Shown one piece after another: positions 1 through 61,158 of a DNA stretch of 64,000 nucleotides (positions within the stretch are counted from its first letter, which is position 1; each line of letters starts with the position of its first letter). The position numbers and the translations under genes were made by a program. The notes under the pieces were generated by a model. It was not told the origin of the DNA, did not search any database, and saw only the letters and a list, made by a program, of their open reading frames with translations. The stretch is from Candidatus Adlerbacteria bacterium (GTDB taxonomy: Bacteria; Patescibacteriota; Minisyncoccia; Phycocordibacterales; SBAW01), in assembly GCA_026397405.1 (NCBI GenBank), contig JAPLUW010000001.1, forward strand, positions 107,138 through 171,137, read 5' to 3'.

Positions 1-3000
1 GCACTGTAGGTAGTTGTTGCAACCCACTGCGGTACGCCAGCATTCCAGGTAAGTACTTGACCACCTGAACCTGTGCCAAAGAGTGATGACGTAGCAACTG
101 CGGTTGGTGCTGCTGTCCCGCCAGTTGCGTTTGCAAGTAAAGTACCTGCTGCGATTGTTGGGAAGTCGGTGTATGCCGCGGTTGAGACAACACCCGATGA
201 CGCCTTAAGGAGGCCCGTGAGTGACGTGGCGAGTGTTGTTGCACCGGTGACGTTCAAAGAGCCTAGTGTAGAGAGCCCTGTTACGCTAAGAGTTGAAGTC
301 GCTGTAACTGCCCCGCCAAAGAACGATGTCCCCGAGACATAGCTGTTGCCTTGTATTGAAAGCGCCTGAGACGGCGACGATGTGCCAATTCCCAATTTAT
401 TTGAGATGTATCCGACAAGAGCCGTTGGGTCAAACCAGAACGCTGCACTTGTTGTTGCATTGTTACCAATAGTTACAATATCCGTCGAATTGTTTGAGTA
501 GTTTATAAGTTCGCCCGGCACTTGCGATGTTGTTGTAGACCAACTTCCCCCACCCGAGCCACCGCCAGTTGCATCAAGCCCCCAACCAGGCAGACCTCCA
601 GCAACTTTCAATACGCTACCTGTGCTGCCAATTCCTAATTTTGCAAGATGGTTGGTAGCGTCTGCGTACAAAATATCTCCGGTCGTATACGACGTAATCC
701 CCGTACCGCCGTACAACGTCCCAACACTGCTTGTTGCCGACACAACACCTTGGTTTGCCTGCAATGGGCCATTGAGCGACGACGCAAGCGTTGTTTGCCC
801 AGTCACTACAAACGTACCGTTAACTGTTGAGGATGCTGCCGCAAGGAACCCTGCAGAAAATGTTTGCAGCGAACCCCAAATATTTGCGGTGGTAGTACCA
901 AACGCGAGCGACAATGTGCCGGTGTTTGTAATAGGGCCTCCAAGCAACGGATATGTTGTGGCAATGTTCGTTACTGTACCCGAACCACCTCCACCACCAC
1001 TTGGGGTGGTTGTGGAAATTATTTGTCCGTTTGCATCAACTGCAAGGAAGGCTCCCGCCGCAGTGCCGAGCGTTGGCAGTGTAAATGTTGTAGCTGCAGT
1101 AACGGCGCTGGCAAAGTATGCATTTGCCGTGGTTGTTGCACCACCGAAGATAGTAAGACCTCCACTTTGTGTGCCGCTTCCAATAGTTGAGGAAGCGAAT
1201 GCAGTAAGACCTGCATTAAATTGTGTGAGGGTTGACGTTGCATTACCCGAGAGAGCGAACGGATACCCAACATTTCCCTTATTGTTAAATGTATTCCAGT
1301 CAGTACTCGAGAGAAGTCCTCTGTTAGAAGCCGAGGCAGTCGGTAGGTTAAAGGTCAGTGTTGAACCCGAACCTGTGATGGTAAAGTCTGTTCCTGTCGT
1401 TGACGACGCAAGGGTTACGGCAGCGCCTGTTGTTGTTTGTCCTGCCGGACCAATCGATGTAAGTGCAGACGTGAGATATGTCGCTGTGTCTACCGAAAGC
1501 GTTCCGTCGCTTGATGTTTTGACAAAACCAGCAGACGCCAAGTTAGAAAGTTTACTAATGCTTTGAATACTGTTTACGTTAAATGCATTGCCGCTGTAGG
1601 TAAGGCCCGTACCTGCAGTTGTTGTGGCACCTGACGAAACAAGGCCGCCGAAGACTGCGAGGGCACCGTCTGAAAGACCTCCAATATGGAAGGTACTGTT
1701 GATTGTTGATGATGCTGTTGAGAGGAAGCCGCCATTAAATGTCAGTTGTGTTGACGTTGCATTACCTGGGAACAAATAGCTAAATACATTTGCCGAGGTT
1801 AAGTAGTCGACACCCGCAGTCGCAGTAGAGACAACTCCAGCCGTTGCCTTAAGCAGGCCACTGAGCGACGTAGCAAGTGTTGTCTGTCCTAGCACGTTCA
1901 ATGTCGAGCCAAGCGTCGTTGCACCCGTAACAGCAAGAGTGTTGTTGACTGTGGAAGATGCAGCTGCAAGAAAGCCCGACGTAAAAGTTTGCAGCGCGCT
2001 CCATGTGTTTGCAGTTGTCGTACTAAACGCCAGCGAAATAGTTCCTGCAGAATTAAGCAACGGGTACGCAAATGAAAGTGCCGACTGTTTACTGTTAAAC
2101 GTTGTAAAGTCAGCCGCAGTCAAAAGGCCGCGGTTCGATGCCGACGCAGATGGCAAGTTAAATGTATGGATGTCGCCTGCTGACGTGATAGTAAAGTCGG
2201 TACCAGCGGTAGACGTTGCAAGTGTTTGCGTTGCACCGGTTTGGGCCGTACCATACTGCGCCTTTAATCCCGATATACCGCTGCCCGAACCCCCGGCATC
2301 AGTTCCGCAACCAAATTGGCCCGTCGTCGCATCCCAGACAATTTTGTCTCCCGAGCCAATACACGACGTCGTGAGCCCTCCGCCGCGCACTGAACCTGCT
2401 ATGTACAGATTGGTTGTGGTGGCATTTGTAGTTGTTGAGTTACCAAAAATATTTCCTCCAGTAAAAACATTGTCACTATAGGTTTTTGGTATCGTTGAAG
2501 ACGCGTTGACGTAGTAGTCGGCAGACGTTGTAGAAAAACCCGAGCCGCCAGACGCAGTGAGCACTCCGTTTACAACAGAAAGCCCTGTACCCGTAAAACT
2601 TGAAATCGTGGCACCTCCAATAGTTACCCCAGAGAGCGAAATAGTGTCAGGGATGTCCGCATCAGTTAAACCGCTAACTCCATGTACGGTTACGTTTGAA
2701 AGATTATTTACTGCTTGAGAAAAATCAAAATTCCCACGAGGGCTTCCGTACCCAGGGTTTGCAATGGTGGAAATTTGCGACTGTAGTTTGTTGTTAAGTT
2801 GGTTCAACCTATCCGTAAGTTCTGTCTCGCTAATGCCGCCAACCGACACGACACGCTCAAGCGTGCGCTGGATAACAGGGTACGTATTTTGCTGGACTAC
2901 AACAGTTTTAGTGGGAGCAACTGGCGCGTCAGGGCCCGGTGCAGAACTTTGTGTTTCAGTAACTTGCTGTGGAACATATGCAGTTGGGTTTTCCGGTGCG

Positions 3001-3554
3001 ACAACATAGTGCGCTGCTGGTGCAGCAAAAAAATATGAAATTACTCGTGAGAAAAAATTACCAACCGCCGCCGCAGCGGTTTCCTCAACTGCCGCAGACA
3101 GTGCAACAGATGTTGTTGGCGTTCCAAAAAAGAGCGCACTATGTTGTGCAACAGGCACACCACCTTGCCCTAGTTGCACAGGTGCAGTCTGCACGCCGTG
3201 TGCTTTTCCGTTTTCTCCCGCAAACACAACCGAACCTAGAAGCAGCGCCGACCCTGCAGCAAAAAACAAACCCGTGCGTGCCGCACCTATAGCCCGTGCA
3301 AAAAATTGCTTTTTAATTTCGCCTGCGTGTTGTATTTTATATTCTTTATTTTCCCTACGGCGCTGGTCTGCAAGAGCCTCTGCACGAGCTACTTTTGCCA
3401 CATCTCGCATTTTTTCAAAGACAGAGATTGACTCCTGCTCTATAAACCAGGCTCCATCAACTTGTCTCCCGACAAGTTTGCCTTCACGGCAGAGTTTTGA
3501 AACGTAGTCCTGGGCGCACCCCAAACGTTCGGCCACCTTACGGGCCGAAAGCAT
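1..3554 (-). CDS. Giant repeat-rich surface protein with N-terminal excisionase-type HTH and one TM helix. Partial: continues beyond the window start.
   Basis: Continuous minus-strand reading frame from ATG at 3554 to the window edge (>1180 aa). It has no stop in the window, so it is absent from the start-to-stop ORF track. The N-terminus (MLSARKVAERLGCAQDYVSKLCREGKLVGRQVDGAWFIEQ) matches the HTH_17/excisionase pattern. A hydrophobic segment (GLFFAAGSALLLGSVVFAG) follows. After that come Gly/Thr/Ala/Ser-rich repeats of about 100 aa with the recurring motif GTDFTITxxGxxxTFNLPxASASNRGLL. The plus-strand Val/Pro-rich ORFs 73-342, 622-1566 and 1939-2481 are its antisense artefacts. Confidence 0.7.
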   Translation of the reverse strand, partial: MLSARKVAERLGCAQDYVSKLCREGKLVGRQVDGAWFIEQESISVFEKMRDVAKVARAEALADQRRRENKEYKIQHAGEIKKQFFARAIGAARTGLFFAAGSALLLGSVVFAGENGKAHGVQTAPVQLGQGGVPVAQHSALFFGTPTTSVALSAAVEETAAAAVGNFFSRVISYFFAAPAAHYVVAPENPTAYVPQQVTETQSSAPGPDAPVAPTKTVVVQQNTYPVIQRTLERVVSVGGISETELTDRLNQLNNKLQSQISTIANPGYGSPRGNFDFSQAVNNLSNVTVHGVSGLTDADIPDTISLSGVTIGGATISSFTGTGLSVVNGVLTASGGSGFSTTSADYYVNASSTIPKTYSDNVFTGGNIFGNSTTTNATTTNLYIAGSVRGGGLTTSCIGSGDKIVWDATTGQFGCGTDAGGSGSGISGLKAQYGTAQTGATQTLATSTAGTDFTITSAGDIHTFNLPSASASNRGLLTAADFTTFNSKQSALSFAYPLLNSAGTISLAFSTTTANTWSALQTFTSGFLAAASSTVNNTLAVTGATTLGSTLNVLGQTTLATSLSGLLKATAGVVSTATAGVDYLTSANVFSYLFPGNATSTQLTFNGGFLSTASSTINSTFHIGGLSDGALAVFGGLVSSGATTTAGTGLTYSGNAFNVNSIQSISKLSNLASAGFVKTSSDGTLSVDTATYLTSALTSIGPAGQTTTGAAVTLASSTTGTDFTITGSGSTLTFNLPTASASNRGLLSSTDWNTFNNKGNVGYPFALSGNATSTLTQFNAGLTAFASSTIGSGTQSGGLTIFGGATTTANAYFASAVTAATTFTLPTLGTAAGAFLAVDANGQIISTTTPSGGGGGSGTVTNIATTYPLLGGPITNTGTLSLAFGTTTANIWGSLQTFSAGFLAAASSTVNGTFVVTGQTTLASSLNGPLQANQGVVSATSSVGTLYGGTGITSYTTGDILYADATNHLAKLGIGSTGSVLKVAGGLPGWGLDATGGGSGGGSWSTTTSQVPGELINYSNNSTDIVTIGNNATTSAAFWFDPTALVGYISNKLGIGTSSPSQALSIQGNSYVSGTSFFGGAVTATSTLSVTGLSTLGSLNVTGATTLATSLTGLLKASSGVVSTAAYTDFPTIAAGTLLANATGGTAAPTAVATSSLFGTGSGGQVLTWNAGVPQWVATTTYS

Positions 3555-41922: not shown

Positions 41923-42105
41923 ACTACGTCTTTGTTAATGAATAACGCATGAAGAAATCAGACACTCAAACTCCCAAACTGAGTGGGCACGGGGTTGAAA
42001 TATCTGGGAGATATTTCAAAAGCTTTTGAGTTATTTTAGAACATTGTGAATAAAATAACCAAACGGTGTACTGTTCCTGTAAGGAAAGCGAACTCCCAAA
42101 ATGAG

Positions 42106-42187
42106 TGGTCATGGGGAGAGTCGAACTCCCACCTCTTGCGAGACACGCTTCTGAGACGTGCGCGTATACCAGTTCCGCCACATGACC
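42106..42187 (-). tRNA. tRNA-Leu (anticodon CAG)
   Basis: Manual fold: 7-bp acceptor GGTCATG/CATGACC, D-arm TGGCGGAACTGGTATACGCG, anticodon stem CACGT/GCGTG with loop CTCAGAA, long variable arm CTCGCAAGAGGT, T-arm GGGAG-TTCGACT-CTCCC. CCA is not encoded. Confidence 0.85.
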
Positions 42188-42344
42188 GTGTCTATAACCT
42201 TACCCAGTTTGTGGTCACGAATCAAATTTGCTAGCTCCGGCTCGCACTACGTGGTCAGGCGTTCAAAAATTGTCGTCACAATTTTTGCCGCACAACCCTG
42301 CCTCGCCCGTCGCCTGAGGGCGACATGGCTCCGGCGCGCACAAA

Positions 42345-42378
42345 AGCAAAAAACCTGCCGCAGGGCAGGTGTTTTTGT
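42345..42378 (-). terminator. Rho-independent terminator after tRNA-Ile (symmetric, bidirectional)
   Basis: cctgcc-gcag-ggcagg stem-loop flanked by A-run and T-run. Confidence 0.6.
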
Positions 42379-42384
42379 CTTTTG

Positions 42385-42457
42385 TGCGCGCACTAGGGGT
42401 CGAACCTAGGACCTTTCGAGTATCAGTCGAATGCTCTACCAACTGAGCTATGCGCGC
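42385..42457 (-). tRNA. tRNA-Ile (anticodon GAU)
   Basis: 73-nt cloverleaf: acceptor GCGCGCA/TGCGCGC, D-stem GCTC/GAGC, anticodon stem TTCGA/TCGAA with loop CTGATAC, T-arm CTAGG-TTCGACC-CCTAG. Located 3' of the 16S as in typical rRNA operons. Confidence 0.9.
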
Positions 42458-44719: not shown

Positions 44720-45079
44720 AGAGACAATTCACATTTGAATGTGTCATGTTTCTTTTTTACTGTAATGAACGGAACAAGAGAAAAGCGCCCAACCTCACTA
44801 AGTTGAGAAATTAAATCTTGTCCGTGCCTTCTACTCGGAAAAGTAAAAGGACTTCTTTTGCTTGCTCCCATGTTCAGTCGCTCCTAGGTGACTAAACATG
44901 AGAATGATCAATGTTTATCAATTCGATATTGATGCTTTCTTTCTCGGCCGCTATAGCCGAAAAAGATTTTTATTCCAGTGCTGTCAAAGTCTGCTTTGGC
45001 CCCGGCTTCATTCCCCTTTCAGGGTAAACAAAAACCGCCCAAAGGCAGTCAAGACAGTATAGTCATATATGGGAGGGAG

Positions 45080-46075
45080 TCAAGCCTGGGTTTTAGGCAG
45101 TTTCTGTTCTAATTTATAGGCATTTCCGTGCCTCAAAAGCCCTATGTACGACTGTACGGTAGGACTGTCTCCTTCAAGCCCATGGGTGCATTTGAACATC
45201 CTTCGCTTAGTACTAGTTCGCAGTACTCGGTGGTCTGGGAAATGAACCCAACCTAAAAAGTCGACGCCGGAAGAAATAGTCTCTATTGATACTTTGTTCG
45301 GATGTAGTGTAAGGCGTAATTCGTTCCATAAAAAATCTCTCACCTGGACTAGCATATCTTCAAGCCATTTCTTGTCACAAGACAGAAACACAAAATCGTC
45401 TGCATAGCGGATATAGTATTTCACTTTGAGTTTATGCTTCACGAACTGGTCGAACTCGTTCATGTATATGTTTACCAAAAGCTGAGAAGTGAGGTTACCT
45501 AGTGGCAGACCTTTGCCTGGCGCAGTGCTATGGAAGCTCTCTACCACTCTCCTGACAAGACAGAGAATGTCAGTGTCTGGGATACGCCGGTCGAGTATCT
45601 TGTAAAGGATTTTTTGATCCACTGACGCAAAGAATTTCCGTATATCACATTTGAGCACCCAAAGTGTTTTTGTATTGTTACAGCTCGCTTTGGCGAAGTA
45701 TTTCTGGAACGCTTTTATGGCACGGTGCGTTCCTTTATACTTTCGGCAAGAGTATGAATGAGCGATAAATGTCTTATCAAAAAATGGATAGAGTTTCCTG
45801 TAAAGCGCGTGATGGAGCAGTCTATCCCGCACTAAAGCTTTATGGATATTTCTTGGTTTAGGATCAGAAATGTTGAAAGCGTAATACCCGCCATGGACAT
45901 ACGTTTTACTTTTAAGCTCCTCATGGAGAGCAACCATATTATCGAAAAGTTTGTATTGGAATTCGCGCACGTCTTGCTTACTACGTTTGCCCTTTAGGAA
46001 TTCGCGCCATGCGGCAAGCAGATTTTCGGGAGAAATGATATCTTCATATGTATGGTTGAAACAACTTTTACTCAT
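45080..46075 (-). CDS. Diversity-generating retroelement reverse transcriptase
   Basis: RT motifs including YADD (YIRYADDFVFL) and the DGR-specific LGNLTSQ (I/LGxxxSQ) motif. Size is about 330 aa. The ORF track extends it to a TTG at 46102 through a G9 codon run; the ATG at 46075 is preferred. Confidence 0.85.
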   Translation of the reverse strand: MSKSCFNHTYEDIISPENLLAAWREFLKGKRSKQDVREFQYKLFDNMVALHEELKSKTYVHGGYYAFNISDPKPRNIHKALVRDRLLHHALYRKLYPFFDKTFIAHSYSCRKYKGTHRAIKAFQKYFAKASCNNTKTLWVLKCDIRKFFASVDQKILYKILDRRIPDTDILCLVRRVVESFHSTAPGKGLPLGNLTSQLLVNIYMNEFDQFVKHKLKVKYYIRYADDFVFLSCDKKWLEDMLVQVRDFLWNELRLTLHPNKVSIETISSGVDFLGWVHFPDHRVLRTSTKRRMFKCTHGLEGDSPTVQSYIGLLRHGNAYKLEQKLPKTQA

Positions 46076-46131
46076 TCTCCTGAACGTACCCCCCCCCGAC
46101 AATTTGGCAACCGAAACTTATCCCCGTCGTA

Positions 46132-46485
46132 TTGAAATTAAAAGACGCCTATGGTGTCTGGCAGCACTATCTATCTGATTTCCCAAAAGCAAAACGTTTT
46201 ACACTCGGCTCAAAAATAGACGACGTATTTCTTAATGCAATTGAATATTGTTTTCTTGCAAGCTACAGCTCACAGGGTGAAAAATTGGTTCTACTTGATA
46301 GATGTATTGCGCGGACTGACCTTCTTAAGCTCTTACTTCAATTGGCGTGGGAAATTAAAGCTGTGGACAACAAAAAATATATCAATTTGTCCGAATATCT
46401 CACTGAAATAGGAAAGATGCTTGGGGGTTGGCGAAGACAAGTTATAAACAAAACTCCCGTCCACACAGGACGAGAGAAATCGTGA
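46132..46485 (+). CDS. avd: Avd-like four-helix-bundle protein (accessory variability determinant; PF05635 / 23S rRNA IVS-protein family)
   Basis: 117 aa. It matches the family pattern (KDAYGVWQ...FPKAKRFTLGSKIDDVFLNAIEYCFLAS...LSEYLTEIGKMLGGW). It has a TTG start and is divergent from the RT gene. The TR begins 6 nt after its stop. Confidence 0.7.
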   Translation: MKLKDAYGVWQHYLSDFPKAKRFTLGSKIDDVFLNAIEYCFLASYSSQGEKLVLLDRCIARTDLLKLLLQLAWEIKAVDNKKYINLSEYLTEIGKMLGGWRRQVINKTPVHTGREKS

Positions 46486-46490
46486 CGGTG

Positions 46491-46619
46491 GCGAACGGCG
46501 AGGAAGCGGTAGTTGCCATTCCAGTCGTTGTCCCACCAGTTGAGGTTGAGGTTACGCTTGCGGTCGTTCCGGCCGAGGTACGGAACGTTGCGGTTGTCAC
46601 CGATTTGCGCGACAGAACC
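46491..46619 (-). repeat. DGR template repeat (TR)
   Basis: 129 nt. It is identical to 46967-47095 except at 22 positions. At every one, this copy has T on the plus strand (A on the minus, coding strand) and the other copy has C, G or A. Confidence 0.85.
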
Positions 46620-46856
46620 TTGTGCAGGAGCATCGTCCATTCCACCACCCGTTGAATACTCTTCAGGCTGAATCGTACTCGCGATGTAATATATCGCAGG
46701 ACGCTCCGCACCAACTGTCTGTTTTTTATTAGCCGCACCGTACTCTCCAAACAGCCTTAACCATTTGAATTCTCACTCGTGCGGGTTGCGGACAAATTAT
46801 CTGAAGCCGTAACCTCAAATTTTTCACTTGTCATTATTGAGTATATAAAAGCAGAA

Positions 46857-46880
46857 CCGGCGCATGCAAGCATGCGCCGG
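46857..46880 (-). other. Perfect 11-bp inverted repeat hairpin downstream of the DGR target gene/VR (terminator and/or DGR homing-associated stem-loop)
   Basis: ccggcgcatgc-aa-gcatgcgccgg lies 48 nt 3' of the target stop codon. On the minus strand a moderately U-rich tract follows it. Confidence 0.5.
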
Positions 46881-46927
46881 GTAGAAGGACCAAAGTTTCC
46901 AAAGGTCCAAGTGCGAAGTCCAAAGCC

Positions 46928-47584
46928 TCAAGCGGCCGAGGACTGCTCGCCCGTCTTGACGACAGGGCGAACGGCGAGGAAGCGGCAGCCGCCATACCAG
47001 CCGCGGCCCCACCAGCGGAGGCGGAGGTTACGCCCGCGGCCGAACCGGCCGAGGCACGGAACGTAGCGGAAGTCACCGATCTGCGCGACAGAACCGAGGC
47101 CGATTATTGGGTACTTGCGCTGCTCCTCGGGATACTTCTCCCCGAAGGCGAGCAAGTGCTCAATGAGCGCAGGCTCCCAGCCTTCGGCCTTCATGGCCTC
47201 GACCACCTTCTCCGAAGAGATGTCGCGGTCGAAGTGGAAGAGCCGAGCCTCGGCGTACACGGTAACCTTACCCATGCCCGCACCCTTGAGCGGAAACCGC
47301 TTCGCAGTGATGTCGCTATTGGTCCAGTCATAGCGACCAAAAGCGACCATGTCCTCAAGCGTCCGGCCGTAGTCCACATCGAGGGTGAACGTATCGGTCG
47401 GCATAGCGACGCCGAGCTTGAGCGCGGCACGGATGGCGGTACGGTCGAGCACAGCGTCCTTGTCGCAGAGGTCGGCGAAGATGCCGCTTGCAAGAATTTG
47501 CTGCCAACGGTCGGGTGTCATACCCTTCTCGTCGAACAGCTTCATCTGAAGGGCCAGTTGGCCCGATGTCATCATCGTATCCAT
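46928..47584 (-). CDS. DGR target protein carrying the variable repeat at its C-terminus
   Basis: ORF 46928-47674. The start was chosen at MDTMMTSGQ (ATG 47584), which has an AAGGAA SD 8 nt upstream. The last roughly 45 aa (GLGSVAQIGDFRYVPCLGRFGRGRNLRLRWWGRGWYGGCRFLAVRPV) are encoded by the VR. The gene is about 62% GC, against about 42% for the RT gene. Confidence 0.75.
   Translation of the reverse strand: MDTMMTSGQLALQMKLFDEKGMTPDRWQQILASGIFADLCDKDAVLDRTAIRAALKLGVAMPTDTFTLDVDYGRTLEDMVAFGRYDWTNSDITAKRFPLKGAGMGKVTVYAEARLFHFDRDISSEKVVEAMKAEGWEPALIEHLLAFGEKYPEEQRKYPIIGLGSVAQIGDFRYVPCLGRFGRGRNLRLRWWGRGWYGGCRFLAVRPVVKTGEQSSAA
46967..47095 (-). repeat. DGR variable repeat (VR)
   Basis: A copy of the TR with substitutions only at TR-adenine positions. 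The invariant GC-rich 3' end (coding strand CCGCTTCCTCGCCGTTCGCC) is consistent with an IMH-like element. Confidence 0.85.
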
Positions 47585-47774
47585 TGGGACATTTCCTTTT
47601 GGATGGCTTTCCCTTTTGTGGGTTGGCCGTGCTAGCGGACGAAGCAAGGAATATTCCTTTTCGCCATAGCCCAAAAATGCCTACTTAATATTAAATAAGC
47701 GTCTATGGGCTATGGCGATTTCGCGAACGTGTAAAAGAACCACCTCTAATTATACACCATTTTAGGTAATTATG

Positions 47775-48332
47775 TCAAGCCTTAAAACCGGCCTCCTGCA
47801 AGGCTTCTTCCACCTCCACATAGAGCTCCTCTTTTGAGCCATTACTGTGGAAAACATGGTCGGAAATAGCTAACACGGCCCTGATGTTAGGCCCCGTACC
47901 AGTTCCCCCCTCATCTTCTCGTTTAGAATCCGCAAGAAATTGTTCGAACGTAACATTATCCTTTTCTCCTTCTTTGCGTTTAGTTATACGCTCAAAACGC
48001 AGCTCGATGTCAGCATCCACTCCCCACACAATCCCTCCTATGCTTTTTACATAGTTTGCTTCGTCTACTCTATGAATTGCTTCAAGAATATAATTTTCTA
48101 GACCGTTCTTCTGGGCACGTTCGTGGGAGATAGAAAGCACGCCACCTTGATGTTGCTTCATAAGCTCATCCGCCAGTTCAGACAAGTTTTTCCGTGTAGC
48201 AGGCAAACCCTTTTCCGCCAGTATTTCTTTCAAAATACCCGAACTTGAAAAGTCTACGAACCCTTTGGTTTTTAAATACTCAACAGCGGTTCCTTTACCT
48301 GCACCCAAGGTTCCGGTAATACCGATTATCAT
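47775..48332 (-). CDS. P-loop nucleotide/nucleoside kinase-like protein (dephospho-CoA kinase / NMP kinase family)
   Basis: MIIGITGTLGAGKGT Walker A at the N-terminus; 185 aa. Confidence 0.55.
   Translation of the reverse strand: MIIGITGTLGAGKGTAVEYLKTKGFVDFSSSGILKEILAEKGLPATRKNLSELADELMKQHQGGVLSISHERAQKNGLENYILEAIHRVDEANYVKSIGGIVWGVDADIELRFERITKRKEGEKDNVTFEQFLADSKREDEGGTGTGPNIRAVLAISDHVFHSNGSKEELYVEVEEALQEAGFKA

Positions 48333-57851: not shown

Positions 57852-61158
<3,307 letters not shown>

Follow-up and report, generated by a model that had tools for sequence, protein, structure and literature searches.

The 64-kb window (the whole stretch of DNA that was analysed) comes from a Candidatus Adlerbacteria MAG whose sequence is already public in GenBank, where the genes discussed below bear only the names 'reverse transcriptase/maturase' and 'hypothetical protein'. 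Between an AAA-kinase/SecDF block on one side and the 16S rRNA gene on the other lie a target gene carrying a variable repeat (VR), a template repeat (TR), an avd gene and a reverse transcriptase (RT) gene, in the order target-VR ... TR-(avd)-RT, with target, TR and RT on the minus strand and avd on the plus strand. The first-pass annotation had claimed four hallmarks of a diversity-generating retroelement (DGR) for this locus, and all four are found exactly where it placed them; its gene set included avd but missed that this gene is inverted, on the plus strand. The placement next to the 16S gene was checked in relatives and is not conserved. The features are as follows:

45080-46075, minus strand: DGR RT, 331 aa from ATG 46075 (GenBank protein P0144), with Pfam RVT_1 and PDB matches
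46132-46485, plus strand: avd, 117 aa, between TR and RT and inverted relative to RT, TR and target
46444-46476, minus strand: post-TR hairpin, 9 bp, CTCTCGTCC-TGTGT-GGACGGGAG, then TTTTGTTTAT; 13 nt after TR
46490-46619, minus strand: TR, with 29 adenines, outside any conserved ORF
46620-46834, minus strand: structured non-coding leader of the putative DGR RNA, 215 nt, with covariation
46840-46845, minus strand: -10-like box TATACT, 7 nt upstream of where leader conservation starts
46847-46880, minus strand: terminator-like end of the target transcript (GC-rich hairpin and T tract), ~85 nt downstream of VR
46893-46926, minus strand: TTGG array, four TTGG at spacings of 8-13 nt, immediately past the stop codon of the target
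46966-47095, minus strand: VR, residues 164-207 of the target, in frame
46928-47584, minus strand: target gene, 218 aa (P0001; GenBank hypothetical protein NT019_00760)

The repeat search returned a single direct repeat, 130 nt long rather than the 129 nt first given, with 83% identity between its copies at 46490-46619 (TR) and 46966-47095 (VR). Tabulating the differences on the minus strand bore out the claim that there are 22 of them and that every one (22/22) is an adenine in the RT-proximal copy, i.e., TR; the probability of 22 random positions all landing on A is P = 3.6e-19. The TR>VR spectrum comprises 13 A>G, 6 A>T and 3 A>C changes, such that 22 of the 29 TR adenines are altered in VR. 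Codon positions 1-2 hold 28 of these 29 adenines (AAY-type codons), and non-synonymous changes make up 21 of the 22. That the differences are adenines on the minus strand shows that the RNA read from TR has the sense of the target and RT and is antisense to avd. The final 20 nt of VR (46966-46985, CCGCTTCCTCGCCGTTCGCC) are GC-rich and identical in TR, with flanks that diverge immediately, and for these two reasons we regard the shared 3' end as IMH-like. No further VR-like copy was found in the 64-kb window. RNAalifold on relatives gave no consensus pairs for a conserved inverted repeat or hairpin directly after VR; a GC-rich inverted repeat after the IMH is present in only 34% of DGRs (Wu et al. 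2018, PMC5758913). A weak hairpin near VR in the window (CTGTC/GACGG) is not common to the relatives and was dropped.

The target ORF is open as far as TTG 47674 (46928-47674, minus strand, 248 aa, with VR in frame from codon 194), and the true start is ATG 47584, where all homologues begin. VR had been described as the last ~45 codons of a 219-aa ORF: it is indeed in frame and in the C-terminal part, but the protein has 218 aa and a further 12 codons come after VR, so VR stops short of the C-terminus. The small target has no match in Pfam and NCBIfam or among PDB sequences, nor a transmembrane segment or recognisable domain; it also lacks an export signal and is apparently non-secreted, in line with the earlier remark that no signal peptide was obvious. 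The structural model predicts a C-type-lectin (CLec) fold, as had been expected for the C-terminus, in which VR forms the C-terminal strands and the variable residues are displayed on the fold. The target family (~370 proteins without a Pfam domain) can now be assigned as a compact C-type-lectin-fold protein.

The RT ORF (45080-46102, minus strand) is open to TTG 46102, which would give 340 aa; the 331 aa from the ATG agree with the ~330 aa first reported. It matches Pfam RVT_1 at 6.8e-23, belongs to a family of at least 8000 database members, and has the Bordetella phage bRT (8ub7, E 8e-47) as its best solved structure. Both motifs named in the first-pass annotation, YADD and LGNLTSQ, align with YMDD and IGSLTSQ of this structure, and the counterparts of bRT D138, D215/D216, I181-G182...Q187, F66, R74, I76 and K29 are kept; the roles of these residues in catalysis, adenine mutagenesis and template contact have been described (bioRxiv 10.1101/2023.10.23.563531). 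The 117-aa Avd-like protein likewise proved to be what it had been taken for, scoring 49 bits against Pfam bAvd (cut-off 40) and 63 bits against NCBIfam DivGenRetAVD (under its equivalog cut-off of 80), and has no match among PDB sequences.

The 350-nt interval between VR and TR had been taken as empty but contains the TTGG array, the terminator, the -10 box and the 215-nt structured leader adjoining TR. For comparison we used 40 related loci. Among the 41 target-anchored loci with both RT and Avd, ~36 share this cassette, inverted avd included, as do the 4 RT-anchored loci, and their TR/VR pairs have 12-27 mismatches each, all of them A-only. Inversion of avd itself holds for every complete target-avd-RT cassette found; 41 of the 80 target-anchored loci and all 4 RT-anchored loci have such a cassette. 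Identical protein scaffolds carry different VRs in the relatives, and the VR of one of them (P0125) is nearly TR-like.

The leader comprises a stem (P0), a hairpin, a nested two-stem domain, an A-rich linker with an invariant TTGGT, and a three-way junction, the 12-bp closing stem of which (P1, 46700-46711 with 46622-46634) ends 2 nt before TR. RNAalifold on 33 loci predicts 47 pairs, 41 of them with compensatory changes; 93% of cells are paired, compared to 74% in shuffled and <=48% in slid alignments, and double changes number 351 vs. 102. The TR-proximal leader domain was also tested by itself. A leader nhmmer profile has this site as its only match in the window (E 2e-46, hmm positions 4-222), while Rfam has no family over the DGR RNA (gathering threshold for the whole window; E up to 10 for 46050-47000). 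In every cassette the leader lies directly 5' of TR with a gap of 0-3 nt, and loci whose target belongs to a second, unrelated family have the same leader. Upstream of it, the relatives have TATAAT, TATACT or TACAAT aligned with the -10-like box, and a hairpin with T-run of differing sequence at the place of 46847-46880. TTGG density in the array is 4 in 31 nt, compared to 2.4 per kb on each strand of the window, and relatives keep the array even where the target belongs to another family; a possible role is to mark the recipient site. We infer from this conservation the promoter function of 46845-46840, as well as the roles assigned below to the transcript ends, leader, P1, hairpin and TTGG array.

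A column-by-column scan for helices joining the leader to the TR 3' end or to sequence downstream returned only trivial purine-U-tract pairings, and covariation does not fix any primer strand that would pair at the TR 3' end. One duplex in the window (-20 kcal/mol) pairs leader 46640-46655 with the TR 3' end, but its register is not consistent from locus to locus, and hence no primer site is claimed.

On the other side of TR, the post-TR hairpin is present in 36/36 related loci, its inner stem covaries, and it is the only conserved structure within 170 nt after TR (RNAalifold, TR-30 to TR+170, 34 loci). It falls within avd codons 108-115 on the opposite strand. An Avd-binding stem-loop just 3' of TR, commonly of 9 bp, has been reported in 207/278 avd-containing DGRs; the hairpin fits this description and is a candidate for such a stem-loop and/or for the terminator of the DGR RNA. 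The conservation of the U-tract that follows the hairpin could reflect Avd residues N-K-T on the opposite strand.

With RT, Avd, TR, VR and a C-type-lectin-fold target all present and intact, we conclude with high confidence that the element is a genuine, intact CPR-type DGR on the chromosome, arranged as target-VR ... TR-(avd)-RT. The interpretation originally put forward stands on a DGR-clade RT, an Avd and an adenine-only TR/VR pair in AAY-type codons. The element belongs to architecture B3 and DGR clade 2 of Roux et al. 2021 (PMC8144416), with its core order TR-(avd)-RT, reversed avd and patescibacterial host. TR-(avd)-RT, i.e., B3, accounts for 90% of CPR DGRs (Wu et al. 2018, PMC5758913). 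CPR bacteria are known for their wealth of elements of just this kind, and the first-pass annotation had likewise noted DGR enrichment in CPR-type bacteria. Since RT homologues number more than 8000, the element is an ordinary instance of this known type and adds little as a DGR; the new point, as judged from comparative sequence analysis, is that TR sits inside what appears to be a small RNA gene that is highly structured and had not been catalogued before.

It is exceedingly improbable that the locus is instead a group II intron or retron RT beside an ordinary duplicated gene segment. The GenBank protein name 'reverse transcriptase/maturase family' and partial, sub-threshold NCBIfam matches (group II intron maturase at 142 bits with a cut-off of 300, as well as retron and Drt RTs) would fit such a reading, but bRT, a DGR enzyme, is by far the best structural relative, the DGR-specific motif is present, and Rfam detects no group II intron or retron RNA. 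Further, adenine-only mismatches cannot come from ordinary divergence, and the mismatch spectrum thus refutes this reading. We consider it plausible that the element is active or recently active, and unlikely that it is a fossil in which past VR diversification has ceased and the 22 differences are frozen. The fossil reading draws on the single VR sequence for the strain in the protein collection (a singleton cluster with one member and three contigs), on the scan of JGI metagenome contigs with TR, its adenines replaced by N, which gave 0 matches and no VR variant, and on the decay that is common among relatives, given that about half of the target homologues have no RT/Avd within 5 kb and ~11 of these keep only leader remnants. 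Standing against it, RT, Avd, leader, TR and hairpin are full length and fit their family profiles, and the RT catalytic residues are intact in the alignment with bRT 8ub7. In addition, drift after inactivation would have added TR/VR differences at non-adenine positions, and none exists among the 22; of the findings that the first-pass annotation had named as fatal to its claim, neither substitutions at non-adenine TR positions nor loss of RT catalytic residues was encountered.

Alternatively, the leader might lie outside the DGR RNA altogether, as an independent sRNA or as a 3'-UTR/regulatory element of the target that merely neighbours TR. Partial leaders do persist beside target genes that lost RT/Avd. 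However, the leader adjoins TR within 0-3 nt in all cassettes, with the TR boundary marking the end of its closing stem; where the target family is a different one, the leader still accompanies RT/Avd, and the terminator-like hairpin and -10 box set it apart from the target gene. The remnants at RT-less loci are also truncated, as deletion debris would be. We hence consider this arrangement quite unlikely and favor a leader that is part of the DGR RNA.

Under the model in which the leader belongs to the DGR RNA, a separate small RNA gene between target and avd (-10 box 46845-46840, 215-nt leader, 130-nt TR, and hairpin with U-tract 46476-46444) would yield an RNA of ~390 nt, to which RT and Avd, made from divergent genes, would bind. 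The post-TR hairpin would correspond to the Avd-binding stem-loop of the Bordetella element. RT would copy TR to cDNA with misincorporation opposite adenines, P1, 2 nt upstream of TR, would probably halt the polymerase like the avd:Sp duplex of Bordetella, and the cDNA would replace VR through the shared GC-rich, IMH-like 20-nt 3' end. As a predicted outcome, up to ~17 codons would be rewritten in a small lectin-fold protein that is apparently not secreted, at the face that binds the ligand. Bordetella has its structured RNA, the Sp region, downstream of TR; here such RNA seems to be placed upstream of TR. We tentatively propose, as a possibility that we would put at somewhat below even, that the functional RNA of inverted-avd (B3) DGRs is permuted with respect to Bordetella: RT-binding and stop elements would reside in a 215-nt 5' leader with its own promoter, only the Avd-binding hairpin/terminator, embedded in the avd frame, would remain 3' of TR, TR would be a swappable cassette in a conserved but uncatalogued ncRNA gene, and the TTGG array, not a cruciform, would mark the recipient site. 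In the literature on CPR DGRs that we searched, we found no mention of the leader, the TTGG array or the hairpin inside avd. These three elements may bear on RNP assembly, cDNA stop and recipient-site recognition in inverted-avd DGRs, questions that the Bordetella structure cannot settle because the corresponding RNA region is absent here.

Compared to the Bordetella phage BPP-1 DGR (mtd-avd-TR-brt; PDB 8ub7 series), the element shares Avd, an AAY-rich TR flanked directly by a duplex on its 5' side and a stem-loop on its 3' side, a target of C-type-lectin fold whose VR is C-terminal, and a homologous RT in which the catalytic and template-contacting residues are the same. In BPP-1, however, avd is upstream of TR and co-oriented, whereas here it is downstream and inverted. 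The TR-RT interval of BPP-1 is a structured spacer of 140 nt that carries the primer strand, stop strand, thumb ring and bRT-binding stem-loop; the interval here is not a spacer of that type and consists of the avd coding sequence read backwards with a single conserved hairpin. The 215-nt structured RNA before TR is also unlike BPP-1, and the stop duplex, which in BPP-1 pairs upstream with downstream RNA, has as its putative counterpart P1, formed by two upstream strands. Bordetella has a GC hairpin directly after the IMH and none was detected directly after the IMH-like end here, and the BPP-1 element is phage-borne with a tail-fibre target, as opposed to a chromosomal element with a target that is not a tail fibre. 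The cell-encoded DGR targets of Treponema denticola (TvpA) and Legionella (LdtA) are lipoproteins/surface proteins with export signals, in contrast to the target here, and the Treponema DGR uses an HRDC accessory gene. Like the Rfam RT-associated motifs RT-1 to RT-19 (Weinberg et al. 2017, PMC5737381), the leader is a structured RNA beside a bacterial RT gene, but RT-10, the DGR spacer between TR and brt in BPP-1 (PMC5737381), lies between TR and RT, while the leader lies 5' of TR and has no Rfam match. Finally, with respect to the CPR/Patescibacteria DGRs of architecture B3 and clade 2, the element differs in its position between the AAA-kinase/SecDF block and the 16S gene and in nothing of kind: it is likewise cellular rather than phage-borne, with a small target and adenine-only VR/TR differences, and the locus can serve as a clean reference for the most abundant type of CPR DGR, with every part intact.

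The first-pass annotation's complete DGR at 45080-47600 is supported overall and its observation confirmed. Three details are corrected: avd lies in inverted orientation, the target has 218 instead of 219 aa, and the repeat spans 130 instead of 129 nt. The parts, in window coordinates, are:

46966-47095 and 46490-46619: direct repeat pair, variable repeat (VR) and template repeat (TR), respectively; 83% identity, the only long direct repeat of the region
46923-46893, minus (array entry 46893-46926): TTGG array, four motifs in 31 nt, directly after the target stop codon
46880-46847, minus: GC-rich hairpin and T tract
46845-46840, minus: TATACT box (TATAAT, TATACT or TACAAT in relatives)
46834-46620, minus: leader, a conserved 215-nt stretch reaching the TR
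46700-46711 with 46622-46634, minus: P1, the 12-bp closing stem of the leader junction, stopping 2 nt short of the TR
46476-46444, minus: 9-bp hairpin, then TTTTGTTT, 13 nt after the TR; sole conserved structure there
46132-46485, plus, opposite to all other parts: avd ORF, 117 aa, above the Pfam bAvd threshold
45080-46102, minus: reverse transcriptase (RT) ORF, equal to the GenBank protein (331 aa from ATG 46075); Pfam RVT_1 match

The adenine-only mismatches reported earlier hold. That is, when the two repeats were aligned and substitutions tabulated by TR base, the previously counted 22 differences (of 130 minus-strand positions) all fell on adenines of the RT-proximal copy and none on other bases (A>G 13, A>T 6, A>C 3; 22 of the 29 TR adenines altered), with P = 3.6e-19 for 22 random positions all landing on TR adenines. 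The homology ends abruptly at both edges, and the final 20 nt of the repeat, CCGCTTCCTCGCCGTTCGCC, are GC-rich and identical in TR and VR. The distal copy is indeed coding sequence, in frame within ORF 46928-47674 (-); 28 of the 29 template adenines are the first or second base of a codon, with ten codons reading AAC or AAT, and 21 of the 22 substitutions change the encoded residue. Within the 64-kb window, a TR pattern in which N stands for every A occurs at the TR and VR sites only. Upstream of the target, there is also a perfect sigma-70 consensus, TTGACA-18-TATAAT (12/12; 47749-47778, -), ~165 nt before the start codon, where the preceding gene ends, as well as a loopless inverted repeat with 29-nt arms (83% complementary; 47661-47718) in the target's presumed 5' UTR.

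Among solved structures, the Bordetella phage DGR enzyme, bRT, is by far the closest to the RT (8ub7, E 8e-47; next match 4e-19). The alignment keeps the first catalytic Asp, the fingertip residues and counterparts of both motifs on which the RT call had been based (YADD/YMDD and LGNLTSQ/IGSLTSQ); the bRT structure paper assigns the RT's conserved residues to catalysis and template contact (Handa et al.; bioRxiv 10.1101/2023.10.23.563531). Because its neighbors are SecF, SecD, FolD, MurD and the 16S rRNA gene, the DGR is a chromosomal element with no prophage setting. The rRNA genes themselves are unlinked and unusually ordered on the minus strand, with 23S-5S (61155-57617) ~13 kb upstream of 16S (44719-43269), the DGR, SecDF, FolD and sugar-metabolism genes in between, and tRNA-Ile(GAT) and tRNA-Leu(CAG) downstream of 16S (coordinates include 42105-42457, -). 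The 23S rRNA gene extends over 3299 nt vs. 2925 nt for the model, and a group I intron lies within it (58184-58383, -; Rfam RF00028, 62 bits). A promoter-like TTGACT-16-TATACT overlapping the RT stop codon, followed by a terminator-like hairpin (45033-45083, -), lies ~330 nt from the downstream 16S rRNA gene and may be its promoter region.

For the target family, 372 members are detectable, each of ~200-215 aa and from Patescibacteria; in their alignment, the scaffold is conserved and the hypervariable columns coincide exactly with the VR segment. Among 80 genomic loci retrieved by the family profile, 39 lack the RT and 41 carry RT and Avd, in every case ordered target(+), TR(+), avd(-), RT(+); 36 of these 41 yielded a TR/VR pair of 96 nt or more (nearly all ~130 nt), in which 12-27 substitutions fall on adenines and few or none on other bases. 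The window shows the same order as architecture B3, "TR-(avd)-RT", present in 90% of the CPR set of Wu et al. 2018 (PMC5758913), and its RT family comprises at least 8000 proteins at E < 1e-10, with identity of 64-78% throughout the best 120. Hence, the element is an ordinary representative of a DGR type that is both known and abundant. By itself, it is of modest interest; CPR DGRs form a separate clade, with targets without recognizable domains (Roux et al. 2021; PMC8144416). The 90%-identity clusters of relatives include proteins that are identical over the first 160 residues and differ at 15-25 positions in the VR segment, which indicates that DGRs of this family are diversifying their targets in nature; one relative's VR is still close to the TR sequence. 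The window's target protein is a singleton cluster, its degenerate TR pattern had no match in JGI metagenome contigs, and all its DGR components are intact. Some relatives have two target genes, in tandem or beyond the RT (L081:1499-1978 and 2683-3111; L033:6725-7183 (-); L037:8565-9026 (-); L042:520-966 and 1194-1625; L047:314-1658), and L047 contains an additional copy of avd-RT, which is frameshifted and has a partial leader.

The VR-to-TR interval is occupied, in minus-strand order, by the TTGG array, the hairpin with T tract, the TATACT box and the leader. For the leader, RNAalifold on 33 loci predicted 47 base pairs, 41 with compensatory double changes. In this alignment, 93% of cells were paired vs. 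74% after partner shuffling and at most 48% after sliding by 1-3 columns, double-change cells numbered 351 vs. 102 in shuffles, and none of 500 shuffles reached the observed values. An independent alignment reproduced this outcome for the TR-proximal three-way junction, and an additional stem, GACAAGT/ATTTGTC, covaries by eye. The leader profile matches the window once (E 2e-46) and 38 of the 41 cassette loci, each time directly 5' of the TR; an Rfam search over the DGR RNA region (E up to 10) returned no family. Truncated leader remnants lie behind ~11 target genes without RT and Avd. Loci with no RT/Avd within 5 kb and a partial leader just downstream of the target (L007, L021, L032, L034, L036, L043, L044, L063, L067), together with L029, which also lacks RT/Avd yet retains a full-length leader, look like DGR cassettes at various stages of deletion. 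TTGG has a background of 2.4 per kb per strand in the window, and similar CTTGG arrays follow the target in relatives; the leader's invariant motif is the same TTGG(T) (46713-46709).

All four loci fetched through RT homologues (L081-L084) contain leader, TR, inverted avd and RT, and three of them have a ~200-aa target unlike the window's family (no phmmer match; hhalign probability 4%). In these three, the TR begins right where the leader ends, each TR/VR pair has 13-17 adenine substitutions (one pair with a single non-adenine difference in addition), and TTGG/TTTG-type repeats come after the stop codon, in two loci as clear CTTGG arrays. As judged from these sequences, the leader is a component of the DGR core rather than of the target. 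The three targets form a second ~200-aa DGR target family (L082:2444-3085, L083:2425-3087, L084:2574-3161; motifs WKTIKLGTG, DW..DILGK and LCPAEVGPQLRLQY), which shares the leader-TR-(avd)-RT core of the window's family and is collinear with that family, the similarity at that hhalign probability being non-significant. A periodic TTGG/CTTGG array directly follows targets of either family (L081-L084 and most of L001-L077).

As far as the literature searched and Rfam show, the leader RNA, the avd-embedded hairpin and the TTGG array have not been described, and they lead to specific hypotheses on the workings of inverted-avd DGRs. The post-TR hairpin, with conserved outer and covarying inner pairs, corresponds to avd codons 108-115, beyond the Pfam Avd domain (residues 14-103), and the remainder of the TR-to-RT interval is avd coding sequence on the opposite strand. 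In Bordetella, an Avd-binding stem-loop immediately 3' of the TR is followed by the primer strand, a polymerase-stop strand pairing with RNA upstream of the TR, the thumb ring and an RT-binding stem-loop, all in a 140-nt spacer (Handa et al.). The same authors, whose analysis was confined to 40 nt before and 100 nt after the TR, found comparable post-TR stem-loops in 207 of 278 avd-containing DGRs, CPR included, with 9 bp as a common length. By analogy, the window's hairpin would fit the Avd-binding stem-loop; a primer strand, sought as leader pairing with the TR 3' end or downstream sequence, was not identified. Since the primer strand, stop strand, thumb ring and RT-binding stem-loop are without counterpart downstream of the window's TR, we propose that the leader may supply the functions of these other Bordetella spacer elements, with P1 as the putative polymerase stop.
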